Origin: an uncultured Bacilli bacterium
GTDB taxonomy: Bacteria; Bacillota_I; Bacilli_A; RF39; UBA660
Length of the DNA stretch: 64,000 bases
Direction: 5' to 3'
NCBI GenBank assembly: GCA_934153945.1
Contig: CAKPFM010000004.1
Coordinates: 34,469-98,468, forward strand
The notes under the pieces were generated by a model. That model saw only the letters and a list, made by a program, of their open reading frames with translations, did not search any database and was not told the origin of the DNA. Position numbers and translations under genes: made by a program. Shown here one piece after another: positions 3,001 to 54,182 of this stretch (positions within the stretch are counted from its first letter, which is position 1; the number at the start of each line of letters is the position of its first letter).

Positions 3001-4159
3001 TTTTACACCATTTCAATTCCCAGCAGAAGATCCTAACTCTCCTTGGAGAACAACTCACTTTGATTATCACTCAATAGAAGAGTGCGTATTAAAACTAGAT
3101 ATATTAGGACATTCTGATCCAACTCAATTAAGATTAATTCAATTACAATCTGGAACTGATATTATGAAGGTTCCAATGGATGATAAAGAAACAATGAGTA
3201 TATTTACATCGACAAAAGCATTAGGAGTAACTAAAGAACAAATATTATGTAATACTGGTACATTAGGAATTCCAGAATTTGGTACACCATTTACTATTAA
3301 ATTAGTAGAAGATACAAAACCAACAACTTTTGCGGAATTAGTAAAAATATCAGGTTTATCACATGGTACTGATGTTTGGTTAGGAAATGCTCAAGAATTA
3401 ATTCAAAATAACGTTGTTCCATTTAAAGAAACAATAGGGTGTCGTGACGATATAATGGTTTATTTAATGTATCGTGGACTTGCTCCTATCAAAGCATTCA
3501 AAATAATGGAATTTGTTCGTAAAGGTAAAGCAAGTAAAGATCCAGAAACATGGAAAGAACATGTCAAAACAATGGAAGAAGCAAATATTCCAAAATGGTT
3601 TATAGATTCATGTCAAAAAATAAAATACATGTTCCCAAAAGCTCATGCTGCCGCATATGTAATAAGTGCATTTAGGATAGCTTGGTATAAAGTTCATATG
3701 CCAGTATATTTCTATGCATCATGGTTCTCATCAAAAGCAACAGATGTAGATGTTGAAGTAATGATTAAAGGATATGATGCTATTAAAAATAAGATAATTG
3801 AAATACAAAATAAAGGATATGATGCTACTAATAAAGAACTAGGTCAACTAGAAAGTTTAAAAGTAGCATTAGAAGCAACAGCTAGGGGTATTAAATTTGT
3901 TAATATTGATTTATACAAAAGTGAAGCCAAAGATTGGTTAGTTAAAAGTGATAATGAAATATATCCACCATTTAATTCAATAGATGGACTAGGTGAAGCA
4001 GTTGCTCAAGCTATAGTAGATGAAAGAAATAAAAAAGAATTTATGAGCATCGAAGATGCTTGGAAAAGAAGTAAAATTTCAGCAACCTTAGTTGAAAAAA
4101 TGAGATTTATGGGAATATTTGATGGTATGGATGAATCAAGTCAATTAAGTTTATTTTAG
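1..4159 (+). CDS. polC: DNA polymerase III PolC-type; the 5' end lies upstream of the window
   Basis: The reading frame is open from nt 2 (PLIQDPNDEDVIV...), so the GTG at 38 is only the first in-frame start, not the true start. Contains PHP motif ELHAHT, DEDDh exonuclease motif VVFDTETTG, and Zn-finger CSECK...CPNC. At least 1373 aa. Confidence 0.95.
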   Translation, partial: PLIQDPNDEDVIVGHRIEESISRLDTLALPGGSITIEAYIFGKDVREAKSGLKIMSLKISDNTDSIYGTLFIRDPEEFKIIDKKIKVGSWYKIRAKVKDKDQYSQDISLLINDINVSNKVFEKIIDDAPVKRVELHAHTMMSQMDGVTKLDLGKHTCELVEETIRMGYKGVAITDHSGCQAFPISFGIIKNHNKNIRKGIKSKIEEIENKLNEEIDENTKKELLEELNKQKELEKNPPIFKGLYGTELTLVDDTVNIVVRPSDEDLINSEYVVFDTETTGFNAGGADQMIEIGAVKIKEGEITDRFDELIDPKRHIPDKITELTCITDEMVKGKDDEETVTKKFIEWVGNLPMVAHNAKFDISFIEMAMKKYNLGEFKNTVIDTLELSRTLDQGYARHSLSALVKRYNVPWEEDAHHRADYDAEGTAYVFAKMLKKLESQKFEKISDLDKLVSKEEIYKFGRTYHFNAIALNKKGLKNLFEIISLANTVYIYKTPRILRSKLEELREGLLIGSGCYESEVFTEARSKEGQELTNIINFYDYVEVQPPEVYGHLLQLGDFKDETELQNHIKKIIDATESAGKIIVATGDVHHFKKEDKIYRQIIVNQKVPGGGRHPLAKNDIKEIPSQHFRTTREMLENFSFLGTDLAYKIVVENTNKIADMVEEIEVIPDTGGTPFSPRVKSDDGTCYLDCPRVVTDLVYNKAKFWYGEPLPHSIEERIATELYGDIVLNTIKAELRDKPVNNLEEQAFKELHDVIIKGFDSVKELLINHMKKEEPELSDDEINKKLKKSLGGVIGAGFDPIYLIAQRLVKHSNDEGFLVGSRGSVGSSFVATLMGITEVNPLPAHYRCSECKISIFEENGKPLGEDYSCGFDLPDKMCPNCNIPLIKDGQDMPFATFLGFNADKVPDIDLNFSDLNQASTHAYTKVLFGADNVYRAGTIGTVADKTAFGFVKGYCEDKNIVMRTAEVERLALGCTGVKRTTGQHPGGIVVIPDYMNCFDFTPFQFPAEDPNSPWRTTHFDYHSIEECVLKLDILGHSDPTQLRLIQLQSGTDIMKVPMDDKETMSIFTSTKALGVTKEQILCNTGTLGIPEFGTPFTIKLVEDTKPTTFAELVKISGLSHGTDVWLGNAQELIQNNVVPFKETIGCRDDIMVYLMYRGLAPIKAFKIMEFVRKGKASKDPETWKEHVKTMEEANIPKWFIDSCQKIKYMFPKAHAAAYVISAFRIAWYKVHMPVYFYASWFSSKATDVDVEVMIKGYDAIKNKIIEIQNKGYDATNKELGQLESLKVALEATARGIKFVNIDLYKSEAKDWLVKSDNEIYPPFNSIDGLGEAVAQAIVDERNKKEFMSIEDAWKRSKISATLVEKMRFMGIFDGMDESSQLSLF

Positions 4160-4170
4160 GGGGAATCAAT

Positions 4171-4923
4171 TTGAAACAACATGAGAATGAAAAATTATAT
4201 TGGGAAGAATATTGGAAAAAAGAAAATAGGAAAGAAGAAAAATTTCTATTTTCTGATATTCTAAAACAATGTAATATAAAAATAAATAATTATTTTGAAT
4301 TTGGATGTGCTCCAGGAAGTATTATGAGTTATATTAATAAAGAATATAATTCTAAAGTTAGTGGATTAGATTTAATAGATAAAAAAATAATAGAAGAATA
4401 TTTAAAAAAATATAATATTACTAATTATCAAATATTTGAGGGAGATATTAATAATTTTAAAACTGATAAAAAATATGATTTTGTTGGTTCATATGGATTA
4501 ATAGAACATTTTGAAAATCCAGAACAAATAATAGAAAAACACAAAGAAGTAGTAGATGAAGATGGTTATTTATGTATAACAGTTCCAAATATGAGGTATT
4601 TTAATTATTTATTTAATTACATATTTTCAAGAGAATTGTTAGAAACTCACAATTTATCAATAATGGATTTAAAATTATTAAAGAAATTAATAATTGATAA
4701 TGATTTTGAAGAAATATATGCATCATATTATTTAACATCTATGTTTCAAGCTAATAAAGATAGTCAAAGATTAAAGGAACATCCATATTTAAGTAAAATT
4801 TATAATGCTATAAACAATATTATGGAACGTTTAAATTTAGAAAATATTCCAAATAAATTTGCTTCACCATATATTGTTGTAATAGCAAAAAGAAAAAATA
4901 AACAAAAAAGTAAGGAGAAGTAA
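4171..4923 (+). CDS. Class I SAM-dependent methyltransferase
   Basis: TTG start preceded by a GGGGG RBS. Motif-I-like FGCAPGS and a D/E acidic loop. 250 aa. Confidence 0.5.
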
Positions 4924-20310: not shown

Positions 20311-20342
20311 AAAAAATATATTGTTAATTCAATATATTTTTT
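20311..20342. terminator. Bidirectional terminator between the pilin-like gene and clpP
   Basis: A-run, atatattg-ttaatt-caatatat, T-run. Confidence 0.6.
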
Positions 20343-20910
20343 ATAATATTTTATCAATTATTCCATAATTTACTGCTTCATCAGGTTCCATATAATAGTC
20401 TCTTTCTGTATCCTTTTCAACTTGTTTTAAATCCTTTTTTGTATTGATAGACAATATTTTATTTAATTTGTCTTTTAATTTTAAAATCCTTTCGGCAGCA
20501 ATTTTAATTTCAGTAGCTTGACCTTGAACACCACCTAGAGGTTGATGAATCATTATTTCACTATTTTTTAATGAATATCTTTTTCCATTCGTACCACTAC
20601 TAAGTAAAAATGCCGCCATACTTGCTGCCATACCAACACATATAGTAGAAACATCACTTTTAATAAAATTCATTGTATCATAAATGGCCATTCCCGCTGT
20701 AACAGATCCTCCTGGAGAATTAATATAAATACTAATATCATTATTGTTAACTGAATCAAGATATAATAATTCAGCAACTATAGCATTAGAAACTTCATCT
20801 GTAATTTCACCACTTAAAATGATAATTCTATCTTTAAGCAATCTAGAATATATATCATAAACCCTTTCACTATGATTGTTTTTTTCAATAACTGTTGGTA
20901 CTAAATTCAT
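20341..20910 (-). CDS. clpP: ATP-dependent Clp protease proteolytic subunit
   Basis: Ser-His-Asp triad context ([15 protein letters not shown]). 189 aa. Confidence 0.95.
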
Positions 20911-36766: not shown

Positions 36767-36840
36767 TTAGCACTCATATATTGACAATGCTAACATATAA
36801 TACTATAATGTAGATAGCACTTAAGAAGAATAAGTGCTAA
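36767..36840 (+). promoter_or_regulatory. hrcA operon promoter with two CIRCE-like inverted repeats
   Basis: TTGACA (36781-36786), 17 nt, TATAAT (36804-36809). CIRCE-like TTAGCACTC-N9-CAATGCTAA (36767-36793) overlaps the -35. ATAGCACTT-N9-AAGTGCTAA (36814-36840) lies just downstream of the -10. Confidence 0.7.
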
Positions 36841-36851
36841 GAGGTGATTTA

Positions 36852-37853
36852 GTGATTAATAAAAGACAAACAGAAATATTAAAAATGATTGTTGAAGAAT
36901 ATATTAAAACAGCTCGTCCAATAGGTTCTAAAGCTATATGTGAATCATTAAATTGTTCTAGTGCCACAGTAAGAAATGAAATGAGTGAGCTAGAAGATTT
37001 AGGATTACTAGAAAAGACACATATTTCTTCAGGTAGAGTTCCAAGTGAAAAAGGATATAGATATTATGTTGATAATATAATGAAACCAAAAGAATTAACT
37101 GGAGAAGATATGTTAAATCTACAAACAATATTCCAAAATCAATCACTTGCGCTAAGTGACGTAATAATTAAAAGTATGGAAATTGTGTCAGAACTTACAA
37201 ATTATACTTCTATTGTACTAGGTAGTAGTAGTAATCAAAATAAAATAAGTAAAGTAGAAGTAGTACCAATAAGTGAAAAAAATCTAGTCGCAATAGTTAT
37301 AACTGACACAGGTCATGTAGAACATAGAAATATGCAATTGGAAGAAAGAGTTTCATTAAGTGAAATAAAACAAACAGTAGATTTAATAAATAAATTTATA
37401 ATAGGTACACCTCTTAATGAAGTTAGCATGAAGTTAGAATATGAAGTAAAACCTAAAATAGCTTCATCGCTAAAAGAACAACAAGCAATATATGAAGCAT
37501 TATACAATGCATTTAATGAATTTAAAACAGAAGAAGAAAATATGGTAAAGGTAAATAAACCAAGTAATATATTAAGAGAACCAGAATTTGATGATACAAG
37601 TAAAATGCGTTCTATATTGAAAAAGTTTGAAGACAAAGAATTGATCAAAAATATTGAAGAACAAGATAGTGGTATTAATGTTTATATTGGTAGTGAGTCA
37701 GAATTTGATGATGATGTATCAATAATAAAAACAAAATACAATATCGATGGAGAAGAGGGAACTATCGCTTTAATAGGCCCAAAAAGAATGGAATATGATA
37801 GAGTAATGACTCTTCTAAAATATATTAAAGATAATATAGAAGAAAATGAATAA
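36852..37853 (+). CDS. hrcA: Heat-inducible transcription repressor HrcA
   Basis: GTG at 36852 after an AAGAGGTGA RBS. INKRQTEILKMIVEEYIKTARPIGSKAI aligns to the HrcA N-terminus. Confidence 0.9.
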   Translation: MINKRQTEILKMIVEEYIKTARPIGSKAICESLNCSSATVRNEMSELEDLGLLEKTHISSGRVPSEKGYRYYVDNIMKPKELTGEDMLNLQTIFQNQSLALSDVIIKSMEIVSELTNYTSIVLGSSSNQNKISKVEVVPISEKNLVAIVITDTGHVEHRNMQLEERVSLSEIKQTVDLINKFIIGTPLNEVSMKLEYEVKPKIASSLKEQQAIYEALYNAFNEFKTEEENMVKVNKPSNILREPEFDDTSKMRSILKKFEDKELIKNIEEQDSGINVYIGSESEFDDDVSIIKTKYNIDGEEGTIALIGPKRMEYDRVMTLLKYIKDNIEENE

Positions 37854-37889
37854 AATTAATTATTTGAATAATAATTAAATGGAGGTAAC

Positions 37890-38531
37890 ATGGAAGAAAA
37901 AGAAATACATAATGAGGAACAAAATTGTAATTGTGATGAATCATGTGAATGTAAAGATTGCAATTGCAATGAAGCATGTGAATGCAAAGAATGTGAATGT
38001 GATTCATGCAATTGTGATGAATTAGAGCATAAACACGAGAAACATGAAAAACATGATAACAAAAAAATAAAAAAACTAGAAAATAAAATAGATGAATTAG
38101 AAAAAAAACTAAAAGAATCAGAAAATAAAGTCCTTTTAGCAAAAGCAGATTCTATTAATTATAGAAAAAGAAAAGATGAAGATGTAATGCGTATTATGAA
38201 ATATGCAAATGAGGATATTGTAACAGAAATGTTGATAATTATTGATAATTTTGAAAGTGCTATCAAAATGGATGATGATAATTTAGATGATGAAGTTTCT
38301 AAATTTTTATCAGGATTTAAAATGATTTATTGCAATTTAGTTACTGTTTTAGAACGATTTGATGTCAAGGCAATTGATGGAGCCAATAAACCATTTGATC
38401 CAACTTATCATCAGGCAGTTATGACTGAAAAATGTGATATGGCTCCTGGTATGGTAATAGAAGTCCTTAGAAAAGGATATATATTAAAAGATAAAGTAAT
38501 TAGACCAGCTATGGTCAAAGTTAGTGAATAA
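37890..38531 (+). CDS. grpE: Nucleotide exchange factor GrpE with a Cys/His-rich N-terminal extension
   Basis: C-terminal GrpE core. Residues 13-45 read NCNCDESCECKDCNCNEACECKECECDSCNCDE, followed by HKHEKHEKH. Confidence 0.9.
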   Translation: MEEKEIHNEEQNCNCDESCECKDCNCNEACECKECECDSCNCDELEHKHEKHEKHDNKKIKKLENKIDELEKKLKESENKVLLAKADSINYRKRKDEDVMRIMKYANEDIVTEMLIIIDNFESAIKMDDDNLDDEVSKFLSGFKMIYCNLVTVLERFDVKAIDGANKPFDPTYHQAVMTEKCDMAPGMVIEVLRKGYILKDKVIRPAMVKVSE

Positions 38532-38546
38532 GGAAAGGTGATAAAT

Positions 38547-40370
38547 ATGAGTAAAATAATAGGTATTGATTTAGGTACAACAAATAGTTGTGTTGCTGTA
38601 CATGAAGGTGGAGAAACAAAAGTAATTGCAAATGCAGAAGGAAATCGTACAACTCCATCTGTAGTAGCATTTGGAAAAGATGGAGAAATCATTGTTGGTT
38701 TGAAAGCTAAAAATCAAATGATTACAAATCCAAATGTTGTATATTCTATAAAAAGAGATATGGGAACTGACAAAAAAGTTCATATCAATGGTAAGGATTA
38801 TACACCACAAGAAATTTCAGCAATGATTTTAAGTGATTTAAAGAAAACAGCAGAAGATTATTTAGGAGAAAAAGTAACAAAAGCAGTTATTACTGTTCCT
38901 GCTTACTTTAATGATTCACAAAGACAAGCTACAAAAGATGCAGGTAAAATTGCAGGACTTGAAGTAGAAAGAATTATCAATGAACCAACAGCTGCAGCTT
39001 TAGCTTATGGCCTTGATAAACAAGATAAAAATGAAAAAGTTCTTGTATATGATTTAGGTGGAGGTACATTTGATGTATCCATTCTAGAACTTGGTGATGG
39101 TGTATTTGAAGTATTATCAACTAGTGGTAACAACCATTTAGGTGGTGATGATTTTGATCAAAGAATTATGGATTATTTAGTTAATGAATTTAAACGTGAG
39201 AATGGTATCGACTTGTCTAATGATAAAATGGCTATGCAAAGAGTAAAAGATGCTGCTGAAAAAGCTAAAAAAGACTTAAGTGGTATGACTTCAACAGAAG
39301 TATCTATTCCATTTATTACACAAAGCGAAGCAGGACCATTACACTTATCTGTTACTTTGACAAGAGCAAAATTTGAAGATTTAATTGGCGATTTATTAGA
39401 TTCTACTTTAGAACCAGTAAGAAAAGCATTAAAAGATGCTAATTTAACTAAAAATGATATTGATAAAGTATTATTAGTTGGTGGATCTACACGTATTCCA
39501 AAAGTAGTAGATTTAATAAAAAATGAATTAGGAAAAGAACCATCAAAAGGAGTAAATCCTGATGAAGTAGTTGCTATGGGAGCTGCTATTCAAGGTGGTG
39601 TATTAACAGGTGAAGTAGAAGATATAGTTTTACTAGATGTAACACCATTATCACTTGGTATTGAAACTTTAGGAAATGTAATGACAGTGTTAATTCCAAG
39701 AAATACAACAATTCCAACAAGTAAATCACAAGTATTCTCAACAGCTGCAGATAATCAACCTGCTGTAGACATTCATGTATTACAAGGTGAAAGAACAATG
39801 GCTGCAGATAACAAAACTTTAGGAAGATTCCAATTAACAAATATTCCTGCTGCTCCTAGAGGGGTTCCACAAATTGAAGTTACATTTGATATAGATGCCA
39901 ATGGTATTGTTAATGTAAAAGCTAAAGATTTAGGAACTAGTAAAGAACAATCTATCACAATTACTTCTTCAACTAACTTAAGTGATGAAGAAATTGATAA
40001 AATGGTAAAAGAAGCAGAAGCAAATAGAGCTGCTGATGAAAAACGTAAAGAAGAAGCAGATACTAAAAATGAAGCAGAACAAATGATATTTACTTGTGAA
40101 AAATCATTAAAAGATTTAGGAGATAAAATATCAGATTCTGAAAAGAAAGAAGCAGAAGAACAAATTAAAGATTTAAAAGATGCTCTAGAAAAAGATAACT
40201 TAGAAGATATTAAAACTAAAAAAGATAAATTACAAGAAACAGCTTATAAATTTGCTGCTAAAGTATATGAAGAAGCATCTAAAAATGCTCAAACTGAAGA
40301 AAATAAAGAAACATCAAATGATAAAAAAGATGATGATGTTATTGATGCAGAATTCGAAGAAGGTAAATAA
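38547..40370 (+). CDS. dnaK: Chaperone DnaK
   Basis: [22 protein letters not shown]. 607 aa from the ATG at 38547. Confidence 0.97.
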
Positions 40371-40374
40371 TATA

Positions 40375-40398
40375 GAAGTTCTAGGTGACTAGGACTTC
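40375..40398 (+). other. Strong 10-bp hairpin (GTGA loop) right after dnaK, with no U-run
   Basis: gaagttctag-gtga-ctaggacttc with one G-U pair. May be an mRNA stability or processing element. Confidence 0.4.
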
Positions 40399-40420
40399 TC
40401 ACTTTAATAAAGGAGAATAT

Positions 40421-42208
40421 ATGGAAAAACAAAAACTAAGAGATGAAGTAAGTAATGATTATAAATGGGATTTAACAAAAATATATAAAACAGACGAAGA
40501 ATGGAATAATGATTATCAAAAATTAGAAAGTGAAATAACAAAGATAAAAGACTATACTAATTTTATAGAAAGTTCAGAAAATTTATATAAGTTTTTAACT
40601 TTTAATGAAAAGATAGAAAGATTATTAAATAAATTATATTACTATGCACATTTAAACTTTGATGTTGATACTTTAAATGATAAATATCAAGAAATGAATC
40701 AAAAAATGGTAGATATGTTAGACTATTTTAATGAACTTACTTCATTTGTTATTCCAACATTTTTAAAAATAGATTATAGCAAAATACAACAATATATAAA
40801 TGAATTACCATCTTTAAAAGAATATGAATTTACTCTAGAACAAATATATAGAGAAAAAGAGCATACATTAGATGAAGAAAAAGAACATATGCTGGCACTT
40901 CTAGGTAAAAATTTATCAAATCCAGGATCTACATTTGAAGCACTAACAGATTCAGATTTAACGTTTGGTAATATAACAGTAGATGGTAAAGAAGTAGAAT
41001 TAACTGAAAGTAATTATGGAAAATATATTTCTTCATTTGATAGAGATATAAGAAAAAAAGTATTTGAAAGATTATTTACAACCTATAGCAATTTTAAAAC
41101 AACTATAACTTCAATATATAATGGAGATATAGATGCCAATATAAGTGTAGCTAAAATAAGAAATTTTAATAGTGCATTAGAAGCCTCTTTATATAATGAT
41201 AATATAGAAAAAACAGTATATGAAAATTTAATTAAAACAGTACATAATAATTTAAATGTTTTATATGATTATTATGATTTAAAGAAAAAAGTTTTAAATT
41301 TAGATGAATTACATATATATGATATTTATACACCAATGATTAAAGTTGATAAACAAGATTATAGTTTTGAAGAAGCTAAAAATTTAGTATTAGATACAAT
41401 AAGTATATTTGGTGAAGAATATAAAGAAAATGCATTAAAAGCATTCAATGAAAAATGGATTGATGTATATAATAATAAAGGTAAAAGATCAGGAGCATAT
41501 TCTTCAGGATTCTATGATACAGCGCCTTATATGTTATTAAATTTTGAAAATAGAATAAATGATGTATTTACTTTAGCTCATGAATTAGGTCATTCAATGC
41601 ATACTTATTTTTCTTGTAAAAATAATTCATATAATAATTCAGGCTATAAAATTTTTGTAGCTGAGGTTGCTTCAACAGTAAATGAATTATTACTAGCAAA
41701 AAACTTATTAAAAAAATCTAATTCAAAAGAAGAAAAATTAAATATATTAAATAGATTATTGGAATTATTTAAATCAACTATATATAGACAAACTATGTTT
41801 GCTGAATTTGAAAAGAAAATATATGAATTAAGAGAAAGTGGTAATGTTTTAACAAGTGAAACAATTTGTAAAGAATATTATGAATTAAATAAACTATATT
41901 TTGGTAATAATGTAGTAGTAGATGATTTAATTAAATATGAATGGGAAAGAATACCACATTTCTATTATAATTTCTATGTATATAAATATGCTACTGGGTT
42001 ATCAGCTGCATGTTATATAGTAAAAAATATACTAGATAATAAAGGAAATGCTAAAGAAAACTATTTAAAATTCTTAAAATCAGGTGGAAGCATGTATCCT
42101 TTGGATGAGCTTAAATTAGCTGGTGTAGATATGAATAAGCCTGAAGTAGTAGAGAGTGCTATAAGCATGTTTAAGGAAACAATAGAAGAATTTAAAACAT
42201 TAATTTAA
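40421..42208 (+). CDS. pepF: Oligoendopeptidase F (M3B family)
   Basis: ATG at 40421 after an AAAGGAGA RBS. Zinc motif HELGHSMH. About 595 aa. Confidence 0.85.
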
Positions 42209-42212
42209 GGAA

Positions 42213-43328
42213 GTGAGTTTAATGAATAAACGTGATTATTATGAAGTTTTAGGAGTAGATAAAAATGCTAGTGAAGCAGATATCAAATCGGCTTTCCGTA
42301 AACTAGCTAAAAAATATCACCCTGATGTATCTAAAGAACCAGATGCAGCAGAAAAATTTAAAGAAGCGCAAGAAGCTTATGCCGTTTTATCTGATAAAGA
42401 TAAAAGAGCTCAATATGATCAATATGGTCATGCAGCATTCCAAAATGCTAATGGTGGAGCAGGATACGATTTTAGTGGATTTGATTTTTCTGATATATTT
42501 AGTGATATCTTTGGTGGATCTTTTGGAGGATTCAGTGGATTTTCTAATTTTGGATTTGGTTCATCTTCTAAAGCAAGAAAAGGTAGTGATACTTTAGTTA
42601 GAATGAATCTAACTTTTGAAGAAGCTTGTTTTGGATGCAAAAAAAGTGTTGAAATCAATGAATCAAAAACTTGTACTGAATGTAGTGGAAAAGGTGGATT
42701 TGGAGAAAAAACTTGCCCAGATTGTAATGGAAAAGGTCAAGTAACTCAATCTGTATTTGGTGGTGCTTTTGTAAGCAGAACAACTTGTTCAAGATGTTCT
42801 GGTACAGGACATGTATTTGAAAACAAATGTAGTACTTGTAGAGGAACAGGAACTATTAATGAAAGAAAAACAAAAGATGTTAAAGTTCCAGCAGGAGTAG
42901 ATACAGGTAATAGATTAAGAGTACCAAATGCCGGTAATCCAGGAAGTAATGGAGGACCAAATGGAGATTTATACATTGAATTTAATGTAAAAGAACATCC
43001 AATATTTAAAAGAGAAGAAAATGATATTTATTTAACTTTACCAATATCTATAACAGATGCAGTATTAGGTGCTAAAGTAGATGTTCCAACTTTATATGGT
43101 AATGTTAAACTAACTATTCCTGCAGGTAGTTCATCAAATGATAAACATCGTTTAAAAGGTAAAGGAATAGAGGATGTAAGAACAGGTAGAATAGGAGATA
43201 TGTATGTTGTATTAGATATATATGTACCTAAAAAATTATCAAGAGATCAAAAGAAATTATTTGAAGAATTAAGTAAAACTGATTTATCTAATAGTTCTGA
43301 CTTTGATAAAATTAAAAAATATTTATAA
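42213..43328 (+). CDS. dnaJ: Chaperone DnaJ
   Basis: J-domain with HPD, G/F-rich region, and four CxxCxGxG zinc-finger repeats. Confidence 0.95.
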
Positions 43329-49098: not shown

Positions 49099-49383
49099 AT
49101 GGACAAGGATATAATAAGTACAAATCATAGTATTAGTATAACAGAAAGAAAAAACATAATGCTTACAGGTGTTAAAAAGATTGAAAGTTTTGATGATGAA
49201 GAATTTTTACTTGAAACAAATATGGGATATATAGTTATTAAAGGAAAAGGTTTAGAAATAATAAAATTAGATACTTATCAAGGTAATGTATCAATAAAAG
49301 GGGTATTAAACAGTTTATCTTATATGGAGGGTGTTAATAAAAAACAAAAAAAAGATAATATGTTTAGTAAATTATTTAAATGA
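49099..49383 (+). CDS. yabP: Sporulation protein YabP
   Basis: SITERKNIMLTGVKKIESFDDEEFLLETNMGYIVIKGKGLEI matches YabP. Confidence 0.8.
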   Translation: MDKDIISTNHSISITERKNIMLTGVKKIESFDDEEFLLETNMGYIVIKGKGLEIIKLDTYQGNVSIKGVLNSLSYMEGVNKKQKKDNMFSKLFK

Positions 49384-49664
49384 GTTTAGAAACACAAATT
49401 TTATTGGTAATTATTTCCTTTTTATTTGGAATCTTTTTTGAATTTATTCACACTATAAGTTACAAAATAATATATTGTAAAAAAATATTTATTCGAATAA
49501 TTTTTACATTTATATTAATATTGTTACAATCACTTTTATATTTCTATATACTACTTAAGATAAATAATGGAATTATTCACATATATGGAATAATATCTTT
49601 ATTAGTTGGAATGATATCATTTTATTATTTGAAATTGCTATTTTACAAAAAACGTAAAAAATGA
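49380..49664 (+). CDS. yabQ: Spore cortex biosynthesis protein YabQ-like
   Basis: Small 3-TM protein overlapping yabP. Bacillus-like yabP-yabQ-divIC order. Confidence 0.5.
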   Translation: MSLETQILLVIISFLFGIFFEFIHTISYKIIYCKKIFIRIIFTFILILLQSLLYFYILLKINNGIIHIYGIISLLVGMISFYYLKLLFYKKRKK

Positions 49665-49689
49665 TATACTTCTAAATAGGAGAGTAGTT

Positions 49690-50103
49690 ATGAAAAAGAA
49701 AAAGAGAAAAATTAAAGGATCAAAAATTCGTATGTTAATATTAATACCAATTTCTCTTACTATAATTGGCTACTTTTTCTATTTATTAATTTCATATCCT
49801 TATAATATTATGAGATTAAAAAATGAAGAAAAAAAATATGAACAAGAATTATTAGATTTAGAAATAGATGAAAAAAATTTAAAAAATGAAATAGAAAAAT
49901 TGAAGGATCCTGATTATTTAGCTAGATATGCTAGGGAGAATTATCAATATTCCAAGAATGGTGAAATAATACTTAAAATAGATAAGAAAAATAAAACAAC
50001 TGTAGAAGAAACTAATAATGAAGATTTTAATCACTTATTAGTAATTGGAATATCTATATTTGCTTTAATTGGAATATACATATTTATAAAAAGTATCAAA
50101 TAA
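49690..50103 (+). CDS. divIC: Septum formation initiator (DivIC/FtsB family)
   Basis: N-terminal TM segment, coiled coil, and a conserved C-terminal ARENY motif. Confidence 0.55.
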   Translation: MKKKKRKIKGSKIRMLILIPISLTIIGYFFYLLISYPYNIMRLKNEEKKYEQELLDLEIDEKNLKNEIEKLKDPDYLARYARENYQYSKNGEIILKIDKKNKTTVEETNNEDFNHLLVIGISIFALIGIYIFIKSIK

Positions 50104-50124
50104 CTATATTTATATAGTTTTTTT
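50102..50124 (+). terminator. Intrinsic terminator after divIC
   Basis: aactata-ttta-tatagtt followed by T7. Confidence 0.6.
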
Positions 50125-50128
50125 GTTC

Positions 50129-50152
50129 AAAAAAATAACGGTTTCCCGTTAT
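50129..50152 (-). terminator. Intrinsic terminator after lemA
   Basis: ataacgg-tttc-ccgttat, followed by a U-run on the minus strand. Confidence 0.55.
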
Positions 50153-50712
50153 AATTTAAAGTCTTTAATATCTTCATCTTCCATATCTTTTCCATCAAAA
50201 TATGTTCTAATTTTATATCTTGATATTTTAGCTACTATATTTGAAGGAAATCTTCTAACTAGTGCATTGTAATCAGTAATTATATCATTATAATATTTTC
50301 TAGCTGCTACAATTTCTGCTTCTGATTCAACTAAACCTAGTTCTATTTTTAGAAAATCTTCACTATTTTTAAGTTCTTTTATTGATTCTTTATACTCGTT
50401 AAACTCATTTATTGCTTCATATAATTTTCTATCTAATTCAAAATTGGAAAATTTTTGACTTCTTAATTCTTTAATCATTGGTAAAATATCTTTTTTGGTT
50501 TTTAAATTTGATTTAATGATACCAACAGATTTATTTAGTAAATCAAATCTTTTTCTAAGCGTTGTATCTATAAAAGCTTCAGCTTCATTGATTCTAATAA
50601 TATATGATTGAAAATGATTATAGATATTTATATACCAAATAAGCAATAAACAAATAGCTATAATACAAATTGTTATATACATGAATACGTTCATATCATC
50701 ACCTAGCATCAT
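50149..50712 (-). CDS. lemA: LemA family protein
   Basis: N-terminal TM segment and LemA-like conserved core. Confidence 0.7.
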   Translation of the reverse strand: MMLGDDMNVFMYITICIIAICLLLIWYINIYNHFQSYIIRINEAEAFIDTTLRKRFDLLNKSVGIIKSNLKTKKDILPMIKELRSQKFSNFELDRKLYEAINEFNEYKESIKELKNSEDFLKIELGLVESEAEIVAARKYYNDIITDYNALVRRFPSNIVAKISRYKIRTYFDGKDMEDEDIKDFKL

Positions 50713-50736
50713 TATAACAAATTTCTACAAAAAGTG

Positions 50737-51114
50737 CTATAGATTTGGTATAAATTCTGGACTATAATTTATTTTTTCATCAAAAGTGATAAAATCTACA
50801 TAAATCATTAACAATAAAAACCATTTTCCAGTAACAGGATCACTTAAAATTATATGGTCTCTTCCTGATTGTTCAATTATCCCAATAAATTCTCTATCTT
50901 TAAATTGTTCTGAATCAGGGAATGTCATATGTATTGTTACTTGTTTTCCTTTATTTAATCTTAAAATATTTTCAATATACGATTGTTCTAATGGTAAGTT
51001 ATCTGTATAATTTGACATTGGTATATTTGTTTGATTTGGGATATTTTGAATATTATTGATAGGTACATTTGGCACATTAGAATTTAAATTAGGATTAAAA
51101 AATGTATTATTCAT
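50737..51114 (-). CDS. gerQ: Spore coat protein GerQ-like
   Basis: Asn/Gln/Pro-rich N-terminus, then QSYIENILRLNKGK...GRDHIILSDPVTGKWFLLLMIYVDFITFDEKINY, which matches the GerQ C-terminal domain. Confidence 0.5.
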   Translation of the reverse strand: MNNTFFNPNLNSNVPNVPINNIQNIPNQTNIPMSNYTDNLPLEQSYIENILRLNKGKQVTIHMTFPDSEQFKDREFIGIIEQSGRDHIILSDPVTGKWFLLLMIYVDFITFDEKINYSPEFIPNL

Positions 51115-51206: not shown

Positions 51207-51767
51207 ATGAAAATAAGTGTGGGTATATCAAATCGACATATACATTTAAAAGAAGAAGATTATATAAAATTATTTGGTAATAATGAAATTGAAAAAGAAT
51301 ATGATTTACATCAAAAAGGTGAATTTGCGTCAAAATCATTTGTCAACATAGAAGGACCTAAAGGAATAATAGAAAATGTTAGAATTATAGGACCTTTTAG
51401 AAATTATAGTCAAGTTGAAATATCTAAATCAGATTCTTATAAATTAGGACTAAAACCACCTATAAGAAAATCGGGAGATATAAGTGATAGCCCTAGCATA
51501 ACTATAATAGGACCAAACGATAAGTTAGAGTTAGAAAATGGAGTAATTATACCTGAAAGACATATTCATATAACTAAAGAACAAATAGATTATTATAAAT
51601 TGGATGAAAATAAACCTTTAAATATTGTTGTTAAAGGAGAAAAACCAACTATTTTAGGTAATGTTAAATTAAAGGTAAGTGATAATGCATATTTTGAACT
51701 TCACTTAGATACAGATGACGCTAATGCATGTAATTTAAAAAATGGCGATATTGTGGATATACTATAA
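51207..51767 (+). CDS. pduL: Phosphate propanoyltransferase PduL-like
   Basis: GISNRHIHL and a second RHIHI repeat motif. 186 aa. Confidence 0.7.
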   Translation: MKISVGISNRHIHLKEEDYIKLFGNNEIEKEYDLHQKGEFASKSFVNIEGPKGIIENVRIIGPFRNYSQVEISKSDSYKLGLKPPIRKSGDISDSPSITIIGPNDKLELENGVIIPERHIHITKEQIDYYKLDENKPLNIVVKGEKPTILGNVKLKVSDNAYFELHLDTDDANACNLKNGDIVDIL

Positions 51768-51838
51768 ATATATCAATTTTGTAAAAAAATATCGAAATAA
51801 GTAAAAAAGTATTTTAATATATATTAAGAGTACTAGAG

Positions 51839-51960
51839 GATAGAATGACATCGTCTATCGCGGATGAAAGTCTTAAGGGTAGGGTTTTAAACCTGATGAG
51901 ATGTTGGAAGTGATGCCCAACCTTTTACTCATATGAACCTGTATACAGGTTCTTTATTTT
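51839..51960 (+). ncRNA. Candidate small structured RNA or leader-peptide transcript ending in an intrinsic terminator
   Basis: Stem gataga-N9-tctatc, hairpin ggttt-taa-aacc, and terminator gaacctgta/tacaggttc followed by a U-run (51935-51960). Alternatively a 22-codon ORF from 51845 with an AGAGGA RBS. Confidence 0.25.
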
Positions 51961-51993
51961 TAACTAATAATATTTATTATTTTTTATTATATT

Positions 51994-52034
51994 TTAGCAC
52001 TCATACTTGACAAGTGCTAAAATAGTGGTATAAT
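51994..52034 (+). promoter_or_regulatory. clpB promoter overlapped by a CIRCE element
   Basis: TTAGCACTC-N9-AAGTGCTAA (51994-52020). TTGACA (52007-52012) lies inside the inverted repeat, then 16 nt, then TATAAT (52029-52034). Confidence 0.65.
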
Positions 52035-52073
52035 GTATATATGTAGAGAAATCTACGAAAAGGAGGGGATAAT

Positions 52074-54182
52074 ATGAATATAGGAAATATTTATGATAAT
52101 CAAGAAGAAGATGTTTTAAGTAAATATGGACGTAATATTATAGAACTTGCTAAAGCGGGGAAAATTGATCCAGTTATTGGTAGGGATGAAGAAATAAGAA
52201 GTATTACAAGAGTTTTATCCCGTAAAACAAAAAATAATCCAGTACTAATAGGTGAAGCTGGAGTAGGTAAAACCGCTATAGTAGAAGGTTTAGCTTTACG
52301 TATCGTAAAAGGTGATGTACCAGAATCATTAAAAAATAAAACAATCTGGGAACTAGATATGGGTGCTTTAATAGCAGGAGCTAAATATAGAGGAGAATTT
52401 GAAGAAAGACTAAAAGCAGTACTAAAGAAAATAAAAGAATCAGATGGTAATATCATTATGTTTATTGATGAAATCCACATGATTGTTGGAAATAGTGCTG
52501 AAGGTAGTGTAGATACATCAAATATGTTAAAACCACTTCTAGCTAGGGGTGAAATAAAAGTAATTGGTGCTACCACATTAAATGAATATAGAAAATACAT
52601 AGAAAAAGATAGTGCTCTAGAAAGAAGATTTGAAAGAGTATTAGTAAATGCTCCAAGTGTTGAAGATACTATTACAATTTTAAGAGGTTTAAAACCAAGA
52701 TTTGAATTATTCCATGGAGTAACTATTAAAGATAAAGCATTAATAGCAGCAGCAACTTTATCAGATAGATATATAACAGATAGATTTTTACCAGATAAAG
52801 CAATTGATTTAGTAGATGAAGCTTGTGCTACTATAAAAGTTCAAATGGATTCAGTACCTTTTGAACTAGATAGTTTAACAAGAAAAATAATGGGACTTGA
52901 AATAGAATTAGAGGCAATCAAAAAAGATAAAGATGAAATGTCTAAAAAAAGAGTTTTAGCTATAAAAGATGAAGTAGCTATTTTAAGAAAAAAAGAACAA
53001 GAATTAAAAGGATCTTGGGAAGAAGAAAAGAAATTAAAAGAAACAATTAATAAAAAGAAAGATGAATTAGAAAGAAATAAGTTTTTACTTGAACAAGCTG
53101 AAAATAATTATGATTTAGAAACAGCAGCTCGTATTAAACATGGTGTAATACCTACTTTAGAACAAGAATTAGAAAATTTGAAAAAACAAGATAATTATAA
53201 ATTATTAAGTGATTCAGTAACAGAAGAAGATATAGCAAAAGTAATATCTAAAATGACAAATATTCCAATTCAAAAATTAGTAGGTGGAGAAAGAGAAAAA
53301 TTATTACATTTAAAAGAAAACATGGAAAAAAGAGTAATGGGTCAAGATGAAGCTATAAGTAAAGTAAGTTCAGCTATAATAAGAGCAAGAGCAGGTATTA
53401 AAGATCCAAATAGACCAATTGGTTCATTTATCTTTTTAGGTCCAACTGGAGTAGGTAAAACAGAAGTAGCTAAGACACTAGCAAGCGAACTATTTGATGA
53501 TGAAAGACACATTATAAGAATTGATATGAGTGAATACATGGAAGCTTACAATGTTTCAAGATTAATTGGTGCTCCTCCAGGATATGTAGGATATGATGAA
53601 GGTGGACAATTAACTGAAAAAGTAAGAAGAAATCCATATAGTATAGTTTTGTTTGATGAAATAGAAAAAGCCCATCCAGATGTATTTAATATATTGTTAC
53701 AAATACTAGATGATGGTAGAATAACTGATTCACAAGGTAGAACAGTAGACTTTAAAAATACGATTATTATAATGACATCTAATTTAGGTAGTGAATATAT
53801 TTTAGATAATAAAGAAAATAGTAATGAATTAGTAATGAATGAATTAAAACATACATTTAAACCAGAATTTATAAATCGTATAGATGAAATAATTATATTT
53901 AATCCATTAGCTAAAAAAGTAGTTTATAATATTGTTGATAAATTATTAAATGAATTAGAATTAAGATTAAAAGATAAATTAATTAAAATAGATATAACTG
54001 ATAAAGCTAAAGACTTTATTGTAGATAATGCTTATGATGAATCATTTGGTGCTAGACCTATAAAAAGATATATTGTAAGTAATATCGAAAACTTAATTGC
54101 AAGTAAAATAATTAATGATGAAATTAAATATAATAGTACTATTTTAATAGATATAGAAAATGATAAATTCATAATAAAATAA
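52074..54182 (+). CDS. clpB: ClpB-type AAA+ disaggregase lacking the N-terminal domain
   Basis: Two Walker A motifs ([18 protein letters not shown]), a long coiled-coil M-domain, and no ClpP-docking IGF loop. 702 aa, starting where canonical ClpB NBD1 begins. Confidence 0.8.

Follow-up and report, generated by a model that had tools for sequence, protein, structure and literature searches.

A Predicted Skipping-rope RNA between pduL and clpB

The locus described here raises the question of what occupies the 306-nt spacer between pduL, encoding a phosphate propanoyltransferase, and the chaperone gene clpB in a 64-kb stretch of DNA from an uncultured Bacilli bacterium (contig CAKPFM010000004.1; the whole stretch is called the window), and whether the occupant governs clpB. 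An initial annotation had pointed to an element of roughly 120 nt in this spacer that might be a small RNA (sRNA), an attenuator, or a micro-protein gene. The entire window was scanned against Rfam at the curated thresholds using cmscan. The sole match was to the skipping-rope RNA family RF02924 and coincided with this element, with a score of 39.3 bits (gathering score 36.7 bits), an E-value of 6e-07, and an alignment covering positions 1-80 of the 80-position model. The G+C content of the matched stretch is 42% as against 19-25% in the intergenic background. On the strength of the covariance-model match the 120-nt element is predicted to be an sRNA, as the first of the three suggestions had it, and an added member of a known family.

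In the passages of Weinberg et al. (2017; PMC5737381) that concern them, skipping-rope RNAs have 3′ terminators and are judged improbable riboswitches, and the supplement to that paper is said to name a protein associated with them. A literature search on the function of skipping-rope RNA turned up no paper after 2017.

The helices of the window RNA are listed in Table 1. Hairpins P2, P3, and P4, an additional hairpin P3a, a pseudoknot between the loops of P2 and P4, and the terminator are all intact, and the junctions GAGG and GAGAUG, which are invariant in the family, are retained. Within 3.6 kb no terminator-like site other than the stem at 51935-51952 occurs. In the initial annotation the element had been described as two local stems followed by a strong terminator; the terminator stands, and the two stems give way to four helices plus a loop-loop pairing. 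The RNA begins 61 nt past the pduL stop codon, with no terminator in between.

Family Alignment and Covariation

The family was surveyed using a search pattern composed of the invariant positions of the RF02924 consensus. The pattern matched 90 stretches in viral contigs and at least 119 in species-representative genomes, the latter mostly from Clostridia and streptococci and including about 20 obvious chance matches in GC-rich genomes. A filter on P1 and P4 pairing, applied to the matches listed, kept 167 loci, which are the basis of all family counts given below. Retrieved loci and contigs carry labels of the form L###.

Covariation was assessed on 114 distinct RNAs, for which the P1, P2, and P4 strands and the loop ends were written as fixed-length strings and the pairs counted. 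Paired cells amounted to 97.5% as against 73.6% in shuffles, and the covariation score was 0.652 as against 0.187, figures that are to be read with the caveat that the search pattern itself fixed several invariant columns. None of 500 shuffles reached the observed pairing or covariation values, and the slid controls all collapsed.

In the same 114 sequences the loops of P2 and P4 can form a three-pair contact with the consensus GGC with GCC, for which 99.1% of cells are paired. We infer this contact from the family alignment. Both sides of the contact are altered in just two sequences, L027 (CCC with GGG) and the window (AUC with GAU). Relative to the consensus, the window pseudoknot thus carries a two-sided change at two of the pairs. 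Because all helices pair and the loop-loop contact is kept by this double compensatory change, the window RNA is best regarded as a structurally intact yet divergent member of the family.

Five viral contigs (L014, L047, L052, L062, and L075) have, in place of the 3′ strand of P1, a sequence resembling a tRNA 3′ end (GGTTCGATTCC ... GCCGCCA). ARAGORN detected no complete tRNA just 3′ of the RNA in the three of these loci that were scanned (L014, L047, and L052). The replacement may mark a prophage integration junction. In L058, L033, and related viral contigs, a gene for an RRXRR plus HNH protein (Pfam E-value 5e-35) or, by our own reading, a TnpB-like gene lies about 220 nt upstream of the RNA. 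This spacing suggests that insertion elements landed nearby and that there is no functional link.

A Subgroup with an Additional Hairpin

The window RNA departs from the bulk of the family in an 11-nt P2 loop (AAUGACAUCGU), a different P4 loop (AAGUGAUGC), and a 24-nt linker after P3. Metagenome contigs were queried for RNAs with the AUC/GAU variant of the pseudoknot. Five true relatives, L232-L236, were recovered, all of them AT-rich (G+C content 23-32%), together with one GC-rich chance match; the scan of viral contigs found no RNA of the window type. All five relatives score above the Rfam threshold, at 38.7-47.4 bits. They have the loops of the window RNA and a conserved linker UAAG(U/G)GUAG (UAAGUGUAG), and in every one of them the RNA is followed at the same place by its own terminator.

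Behind the linker, as read directly from the aligned sequences, stands an extra hairpin that varies in sequence and length and keeps its pairing. It takes the form GGUU-UUA-AACC in the window, AUAGGU-GAAA-ACUUAU in L232, and AAGAUU-AUU-AAUCUU in L235. The length of P3 also varies across the subgroup with the pairing maintained. Because the extra hairpin pairs in the relatives despite its differing sequence and length, the apparent insertion after P3 is better explained as a conserved extra stem than as damage. A further helix, GUCUUA/UGAGAU, was proposed by RNAalifold from five subgroup sequences, two of them shortened at the 3′ end; it showed no covariation, competes with P3, and was discarded. 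The subgroup, with its extra hairpin and compensated pseudoknot, may be undescribed so far.

Set beside the skipping-rope family as a whole, the window RNA has the same four-helix layout, the same GAGG and GAGAUG junctions, a Rho-independent terminator, and a location outside a 5′ untranslated region (UTR). It differs in the P2 loop, the AUC/GAU pseudoknot, the linker, and the hairpin after P3 just described and in having no partner gene nearby.

Linkage of the RNA Family to PBECR3 Nuclease Genes

Clustering was applied to all open reading frames (ORFs) located up to 3.5 kb from the 167 RNAs. One neighbor family was outstanding, a protein of about 100-155 residues found at 89 of the 167 loci in 81 distinct sequences. 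It corresponds to Pfam PF18812, PBECR3 or "phage Barnase-EndoU-ColicinE5/D-RelE-like nuclease 3" (E-value 2.5e-19), and is a predicted RNase. The clustering disclosed no second protein conserved with the PBECR3-RNA pair. The PBECR3 gene lies on the strand of the RNA in all but one of the 89 loci (88/89) and ends some 13-170 nt upstream of it, in 85 of 88 cases within about 100 nt. Median identity among the PBECR3 proteins is 30%. Two histidines (H..H), a PDY motif, a glutamate, and lysines are kept, a pattern of the kind expected for an enzyme under selection. When a PBECR3 partner protein was searched by sequence against the PDB, only chance matches came back.

The pair is found in more than one genomic setting. 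In prophage contigs it lies near integrase and repressor genes. In Clostridium sensu stricto it occupies a fixed site for which our own reading of the sequences gives the order gpsA, spoIVA, PBECR3, RNA, asparaginase-like gene, permease gene. This spoIVA-linked site occurs in about 30 Clostridium species (among L103-L219, for example L175 and L188), a core-genome rather than a prophage setting.

The gene order is reversed in the subgroup to which the window RNA belongs. Specifically, in L232, L233, L234, and L236 the PBECR3 gene begins on the same strand just past the terminator of the RNA. The encoded proteins match Pfam PBECR3 at an E-value of about 3e-16 and a PBECR3 hidden Markov model (HMM) at E-values of 1e-15 to 1e-21. 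In L233, L234, and L236 the stretch from the terminator to the start codon of PBECR3 shows no promoter; L232 has a promoter of its own, TTGACG-17-TATAAT, before the gene. The fifth relative, L235, is an orphan and follows a HipA_C-like gene.

The window RNA is likewise an orphan within the 64 kb, since a six-frame translation of the window yielded no match to the PBECR3 HMM (best E-value >5). The same HMM picks up the subgroup proteins at E-values down to 1e-21. The partner gene is an associated feature that the RF02924 model itself does not include, and orphan copies of the RNA are common.

Several further loci carry features that bear on the toxin-antitoxin surroundings of the RNA. In L232 a Phd/YefM-YoeB pair lies upstream, and RNase P RNA is nearby. 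A DUF3800-I RNA (RF02969; 4529-4655 on the + strand, score 57.4 bits, threshold 44.2) is also present there, opposite in strand to the PBECR3 gene and at its 3′ end, so two RNA motifs listed as orphans in 2017 flank one nuclease gene. According to the relevant passages of Weinberg et al. (2017; PMC5737381), the DUF3800-I and drum RNAs resemble skipping-rope RNA in being orphans with 3′ terminators and in their "compelling association" with one protein family; their folds are unrelated to that of skipping-rope RNA, and neither motif is among the Rfam matches of the 64-kb window.

In the viral contigs L025 and L065, a weakly AbiQ-like gene (PADLOC E-value 1e-3) is preceded by two tandem repeats, each about 44 nt long, and a terminator, an arrangement resembling a type III toxin-antitoxin module. 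The small gene in L019 and L217 is a different one that has no Pfam or PADLOC match and stands behind a repeat-like leader and a terminator. Pfam gave nothing for either protein type upstream of the RNA in these four loci, where the skipping-rope RNA follows the toxin-like gene at a distance of 7-33 nt. A role of skipping-rope RNA as an AbiQ/ToxN-like antitoxin was considered and rejected, given that L025 and L065 have their own repeat and terminator and L019 and L217 their repeat-like leader and terminator.

Variability of the pduL-clpB Spacer

Among the loci fetched, the RNA is found at the pduL-clpB site only in the window locus (L001) and in L220. The relatives whose ClpB proteins are 91, 83, 79, 79, and 78% identical to that of the window have other upstream genes, short spacers, and no Rfam match. 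A relative with 89% PduL identity has a plain terminator alone after pduL, and in one with 72% PduL identity the next gene follows 88 nt beyond pduL. In L228 (75% PduL identity) pduL and clpB are adjacent, 860 nt apart, with a spacer that contains a 374-nt tandem repeat (3590-4292; 1.9 copies) showing no Rfam match and no PBECR3 remnant. These three relatives all lack the RNA after pduL, and a linkage of the RNA to pduL was therefore rejected. The pduL-clpB spacer is most plausibly a variable site that holds a skipping-rope RNA in this species.

Table 1. Positions of the RNA, promoter, and gene features in the pduL-clpB region, numbered from the first nucleotide of the window
Feature	Position	Strand	Basis or description
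pduL-type phosphate propanoyltransferase gene	51207-51767	+	Pfam PTAC 1.6e-61; NF011652 223 bits
Predicted skipping-rope RNA	51829-51929	+	Rfam covariance-model match above threshold
P1 closing helix	51829-51836 with 51922-51929	+	Model alignment; 6/8 pairs
P2 hairpin	51839-51859	+	Model alignment; 5/5 pairs
Pseudoknot half in P2 loop (AUC)	51850-51852	+	Pairs with GAU at 51912-51914
P3 hairpin	51862-51873	+	Model alignment
Extra hairpin P3a	~51882-51894	+	GGUU-UUA-AACC
Conserved GAGAUG junction	51898-51903	+	Model alignment
P4 hairpin	51903-51921	+	Model alignment; 5/5 pairs
Pseudoknot half in P4 loop (GAU)	51912-51914	+	Pairs with AUC at 51850-51852
Predicted intrinsic terminator of the RNA	51935-51962	+	7-bp stem at 51935-51952, 4-nt loop, T-run
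CIRCE operator (HrcA site)	51994-52020		TTAGCACTC-N9-AAGTGCTAA; 1 mismatch
Predicted clpB sigma-A-type promoter	52007-52034	+	TTGACA at 52007-52012, 16-nt spacer, TG-n-TATAAT; 12/12 hexamer matches plus TG
5′-UTR hairpin	52043-52056	+	GUAGA-GAAA-UCUAC; read from sequence
clpB ribosome-binding site	52061-52068	+	AGGAGGGG; directly after the 5′-UTR hairpin
clpB (NBD1, M-domain, NBD2, D2-small; 702 aa)	52074-54182	+	Pfam and TIGR03346
NBD, nucleotide-binding domain; M-domain, middle domain; CIRCE, controlling inverted repeat of chaperone expression.

Function of the RNA and Its Relation to clpB

Taken together, it is highly probable that the RNA gene, an HrcA-controlled promoter cassette, and a ClpB without its N-terminal domain (N-domain) are independent units lying side by side and that the orphan RNA does not regulate clpB. 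With the clpB promoter located beyond the terminator of the RNA, the RNA is not regarded as a clpB leader. Given that no strong promoter occurs in the 61 nt ahead of the RNA and that family members normally follow a same-strand gene, transcription would most likely either run on from pduL as a 3′ extension or start at a weak promoter with a -10 box only. The RNA would end at its own terminator, at 51955-51962. This terminator would also end read-through from pduL and so shield the HrcA-controlled promoter. HrcA would repress that promoter until chaperone capacity is titrated, and the promoter would then drive synthesis of a naturally N-domain-less ClpB disaggregase.

For skipping-rope RNA, described in 2017, the survey supplies a partner family, PBECR3, both gene orders, and new subgroup traits. 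For the family as a whole we tentatively favor a mechanism in which the RNA binds and restrains the PBECR3 nuclease in the manner of a type III toxin-antitoxin system, a proposal to which we give somewhat less than an even chance. It is favored because RNA and gene are linked on one strand in both gene orders, because the layout in the subgroup is RNA-terminator-nuclease, because there is no conserved protein partner, and because the setting is one of prophage accessory regions and toxin-antitoxin islands (L232; L025 and L065). The window copy would then be either a protective RNA that stands alone or what survives of a module that lost its nuclease gene.

The resemblance to the type III systems ToxIN, AbiQ/antiQ, and CptIN is partial. 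In the subgroup, as in those systems, a structured RNA, a terminator, and a small gene of an endoribonuclease fold lie on one strand without a protein antitoxin. Both occur in prophage accessory regions or toxin-antitoxin islands, and both have orphan RNA copies in phages. Unlike the type III antitoxins, skipping-rope RNA is a single folded RNA rather than a set of tandem repeats, and the protein has a BECR fold (PBECR3) rather than the ToxN fold. Further differences are that the RNA of the main group follows the gene, that the window has no toxin gene, and that the AbiQ-like loci with a skipping-rope RNA have a repeat antitoxin of their own.

A number of points weigh against the readings preferred here. 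The RF02924 score is merely 2.6 bits over threshold, two P1 positions are mismatched, and the expression and ends of the RNA are predictions. L220, the sole other copy of the locus, is 100% identical across the spacer, so conservation at this site says nothing about selection. For the family mechanism, the main-group RNA would sit in the 3′ UTR of the nuclease mRNA, an arrangement that by itself gives no excess of RNA such as classical type III systems need. Many phage copies have no nuclease gene, and the RNA is a single folded copy without tandem repeats. An RNA-restrained RNase is a concrete and testable hypothesis for which the natural orphan copies offer test cases, and the PBECR3 link is the lead most worth following.

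There is also a rather modest likelihood that RNA and PBECR3 RNase make up a so far unrecognized two-part system of a type III toxin-antitoxin-like or defense-like kind, in which one folded RNA keeps the nuclease in check and the orphans in the window and in phages would act as stand-alone immunity or anti-defense RNAs against PBECR3 encoded elsewhere or delivered by mobile elements. With a similarly modest likelihood, the window RNA is a decaying relic of a skipping-rope/PBECR3 module that lost its nuclease and has no present function. Such a relic would account for the missing PBECR3 gene in the 64 kb, for the presence of the RNA at the pduL-clpB site in this species only, for the near-threshold score with its two P1 mismatches, and for the variability of a spacer that in L228 holds a different filler, the 374-nt tandem repeat. 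It sits less well with the intact helices P2, P3, P3a, and P4, pseudoknot, and terminator and with the retained GAGG and GAGAUG junctions; moreover, L235 is a second orphan in the subgroup, and a partner could be encoded beyond the window.

It is improbable that the RNA is a 3′-end module acting in cis to stabilize or protect the attached mRNA, here that of pduL, with no partnership with PBECR3. The RNA does usually stand within about 100 nt after a same-strand gene and always has a terminator, and the preceding genes in phage contigs are varied (tail fiber, HU, AbiQ-like toxins). However, a 3′-end module would leave unexplained both the subgroup order, with the RNA ahead of the nuclease gene, and the fact that one protein family makes up more than half of all neighbors, and in the relative with 89% PduL identity a simple terminator suffices.

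The suggestion of an attenuator, taken as a cis-acting, riboswitch-like leader of the downstream gene (clpB here and PBECR3 in the relatives), is very doubtful. A layout of RNA, terminator, and gene is typical of such leaders, and L233, L234, and L236 show no promoter before PBECR3. In the window, however, a full consensus promoter for clpB lies 3′ of the terminator, and the RNA is absent upstream of clpB in all the other clpB loci fetched. P1 and the terminator stem are separate and do not overlap, and there is no conserved alternative pairing. In addition, the RNA lies downstream of its associated gene in 88 of 89 main-group loci, and a riboswitch role was thought improbable in the passages of the 2017 report that treat it (PMC5737381). 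The ORF of 22 codons that the initial annotation had noted together with an AGAGGA ribosome-binding site does exist (51845-51913; MTSSIADESLKGRVLNLMRCWK) and has a purine-rich stretch 7 nt upstream, but a 22-aa peptide product is extremely improbable because that stretch is the invariant GAGG junction of the RNA and no binding site, the AUG lies in the P2 loop and is AUA in three of the five closest RNA relatives (L233, L234, and L236), the frame of a fourth (L235) stops after 14 codons, and variation in the family obeys the rules of base pairing and not those of codons. A false lead is thereby removed, and clpB is left with neither an RNA leader nor a leader peptide.

The clpB Promoter and HrcA Control

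The near-perfect CIRCE embedding the -35 box that had been noted upstream of clpB was recovered using the consensus TTAGCACTC-N9-GAGTGCTAA (Table 1). There are three CIRCE-like sites in the window as against 0.03 expected, the other two lying before hrcA. The -35 box is inside the operator, the last A of TTGACA being the first base of the right arm, and the single CIRCE mismatch (G to A) completes a perfect TTGACA. The composite TTAGCACTC-N4-TTGACAAGTGCTAA is found exactly upstream of clpB in 16 of 16 fetched clpB loci and in L228, which together represent several species. The site stands behind five other upstream settings that have no RNA, namely a pilin-like gene, RNase J, a MurT-partner amidotransferase, a histidine kinase, and pduL with the repeat spacer.

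The gene for the repressor is in the window as well: hrcA, at 36834-37853, scores 304 bits against TIGR00331 (cut-off 197) and is preceded by two CIRCE sites. Because the composite operator and promoter is exact in every clpB locus fetched (17 in all) and hrcA is in the window, control of clpB by HrcA rather than CtsR is supported, in line with the initial annotation. Such control is already known from Mollicutes: membership of clpB in the HrcA regulon is established for M. pneumoniae (MPN531) and has been described for S. melliferum and M. gallisepticum (PMC7737663, PMC5138195).

A search for the CtsR heptad RGTCAAA-NAN-RGTCAAA gave one match with two mismatches in the 64 kb as against 1.29 expected, that is, at chance level, and it was not near clpB or clpP. 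The absence of CtsR repeats near clpP noted previously also holds, with no CtsR-like repeat upstream of that gene (20341-20910, minus strand).

The hairpin in the clpB 5′ UTR lies near the predicted 5′ end of the mRNA and may serve as a 5′ stabilizer. A hairpin occurs at the equivalent place in the clpB 5′ UTR of L003 (about 3965-3978), the 91% relative.

In the hrcA operon (36767-43328) the first CIRCE, at 36767-36793, has two mismatches and also overlaps a TTGACA, and the second, at 36814-36840, lies just before the hrcA start codon. Between the ORFs presumed to be dnaK and dnaJ is pepF (oligoendopeptidase F; 40385-42208, TIGR00181 634 bits), which from this position would fall under HrcA control.

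ClpB without an N-domain

The initial annotation had also stated that the clpB ORF begins without the N-domain and that no coding remnant of it is visible upstream. Residues 9-701 of the ORF align continuously to positions 150-852 of the 853 positions of TIGR03346, which bears this out, and 5′ of the ATG the frame contains several stop codons and no coding remnant. Pfam matches to AAA, AAA_lid_9, AAA_2, and ClpB_D2-small account for both AAA modules, the lid, and the D2-small domain; the Clp_N domain of about 145 residues is absent. Because of this absence the TIGR03346 score, 1093, remains below the equivalog cut-off of 1232.

Alignment with homologues confirmed the missing N-domain and indicated that the short form is the norm of the lineage. 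Among homologues 77-100% identical to the window ClpB, all 120 listed have 699-715 residues save one entry of 607. Most representatives of the 50%-identity clusters are full length (about 860 residues), with residue 12 or so of the query opposite their residue 160 or so; several lack the N-domain. One protein without the domain, assigned by cluster look-up to Mycoplasmopsis meleagridis, has 720 residues, is 54% identical, and is aligned from residue 16.

Escherichia coli produces an active isoform, ClpB80, that lacks the N-domain and arises from an internal start as a second product of the full-length gene. Disaggregase activity is therefore possible for a ClpB that lacks the N-domain. The window protein has the NBD1, M-domain, and NBD2 of ClpB80 and differs in that the N-domain-less form is the sole form encoded.

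As in the Mollicutes, the window has an N-domain-less ClpB of about 700-720 residues and a clpB in the HrcA regulon (PMC7737663, PMC5138195). It differs in its host, an AT-rich spore-forming Bacilli bacterium (YabP, YabQ, GerQ, RecU) that is not wall-less, and in having a single CIRCE fused to the -35 box. The short ClpB and HrcA control are thus most readily seen as inherited traits of the lineage that are shared with Mollicutes, and the clpB points are ordinary for the lineage. The sporulation and division genes yabP, yabQ, divIC, and gerQ together with recU/pbp1 flank the locus at 49099-51114. They mark the host as one of the spore-forming Bacilli, even though its ClpB and the regulation of clpB are Mollicute-like.

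Comparison of L220 with the window at 51760-54182 showed that the pduL-clpB spacer is 100% identical, that the ClpB proteins are 93% identical, and that the downstream genes differ. This pattern suggests a recombination mosaic with a junction within or after clpB.

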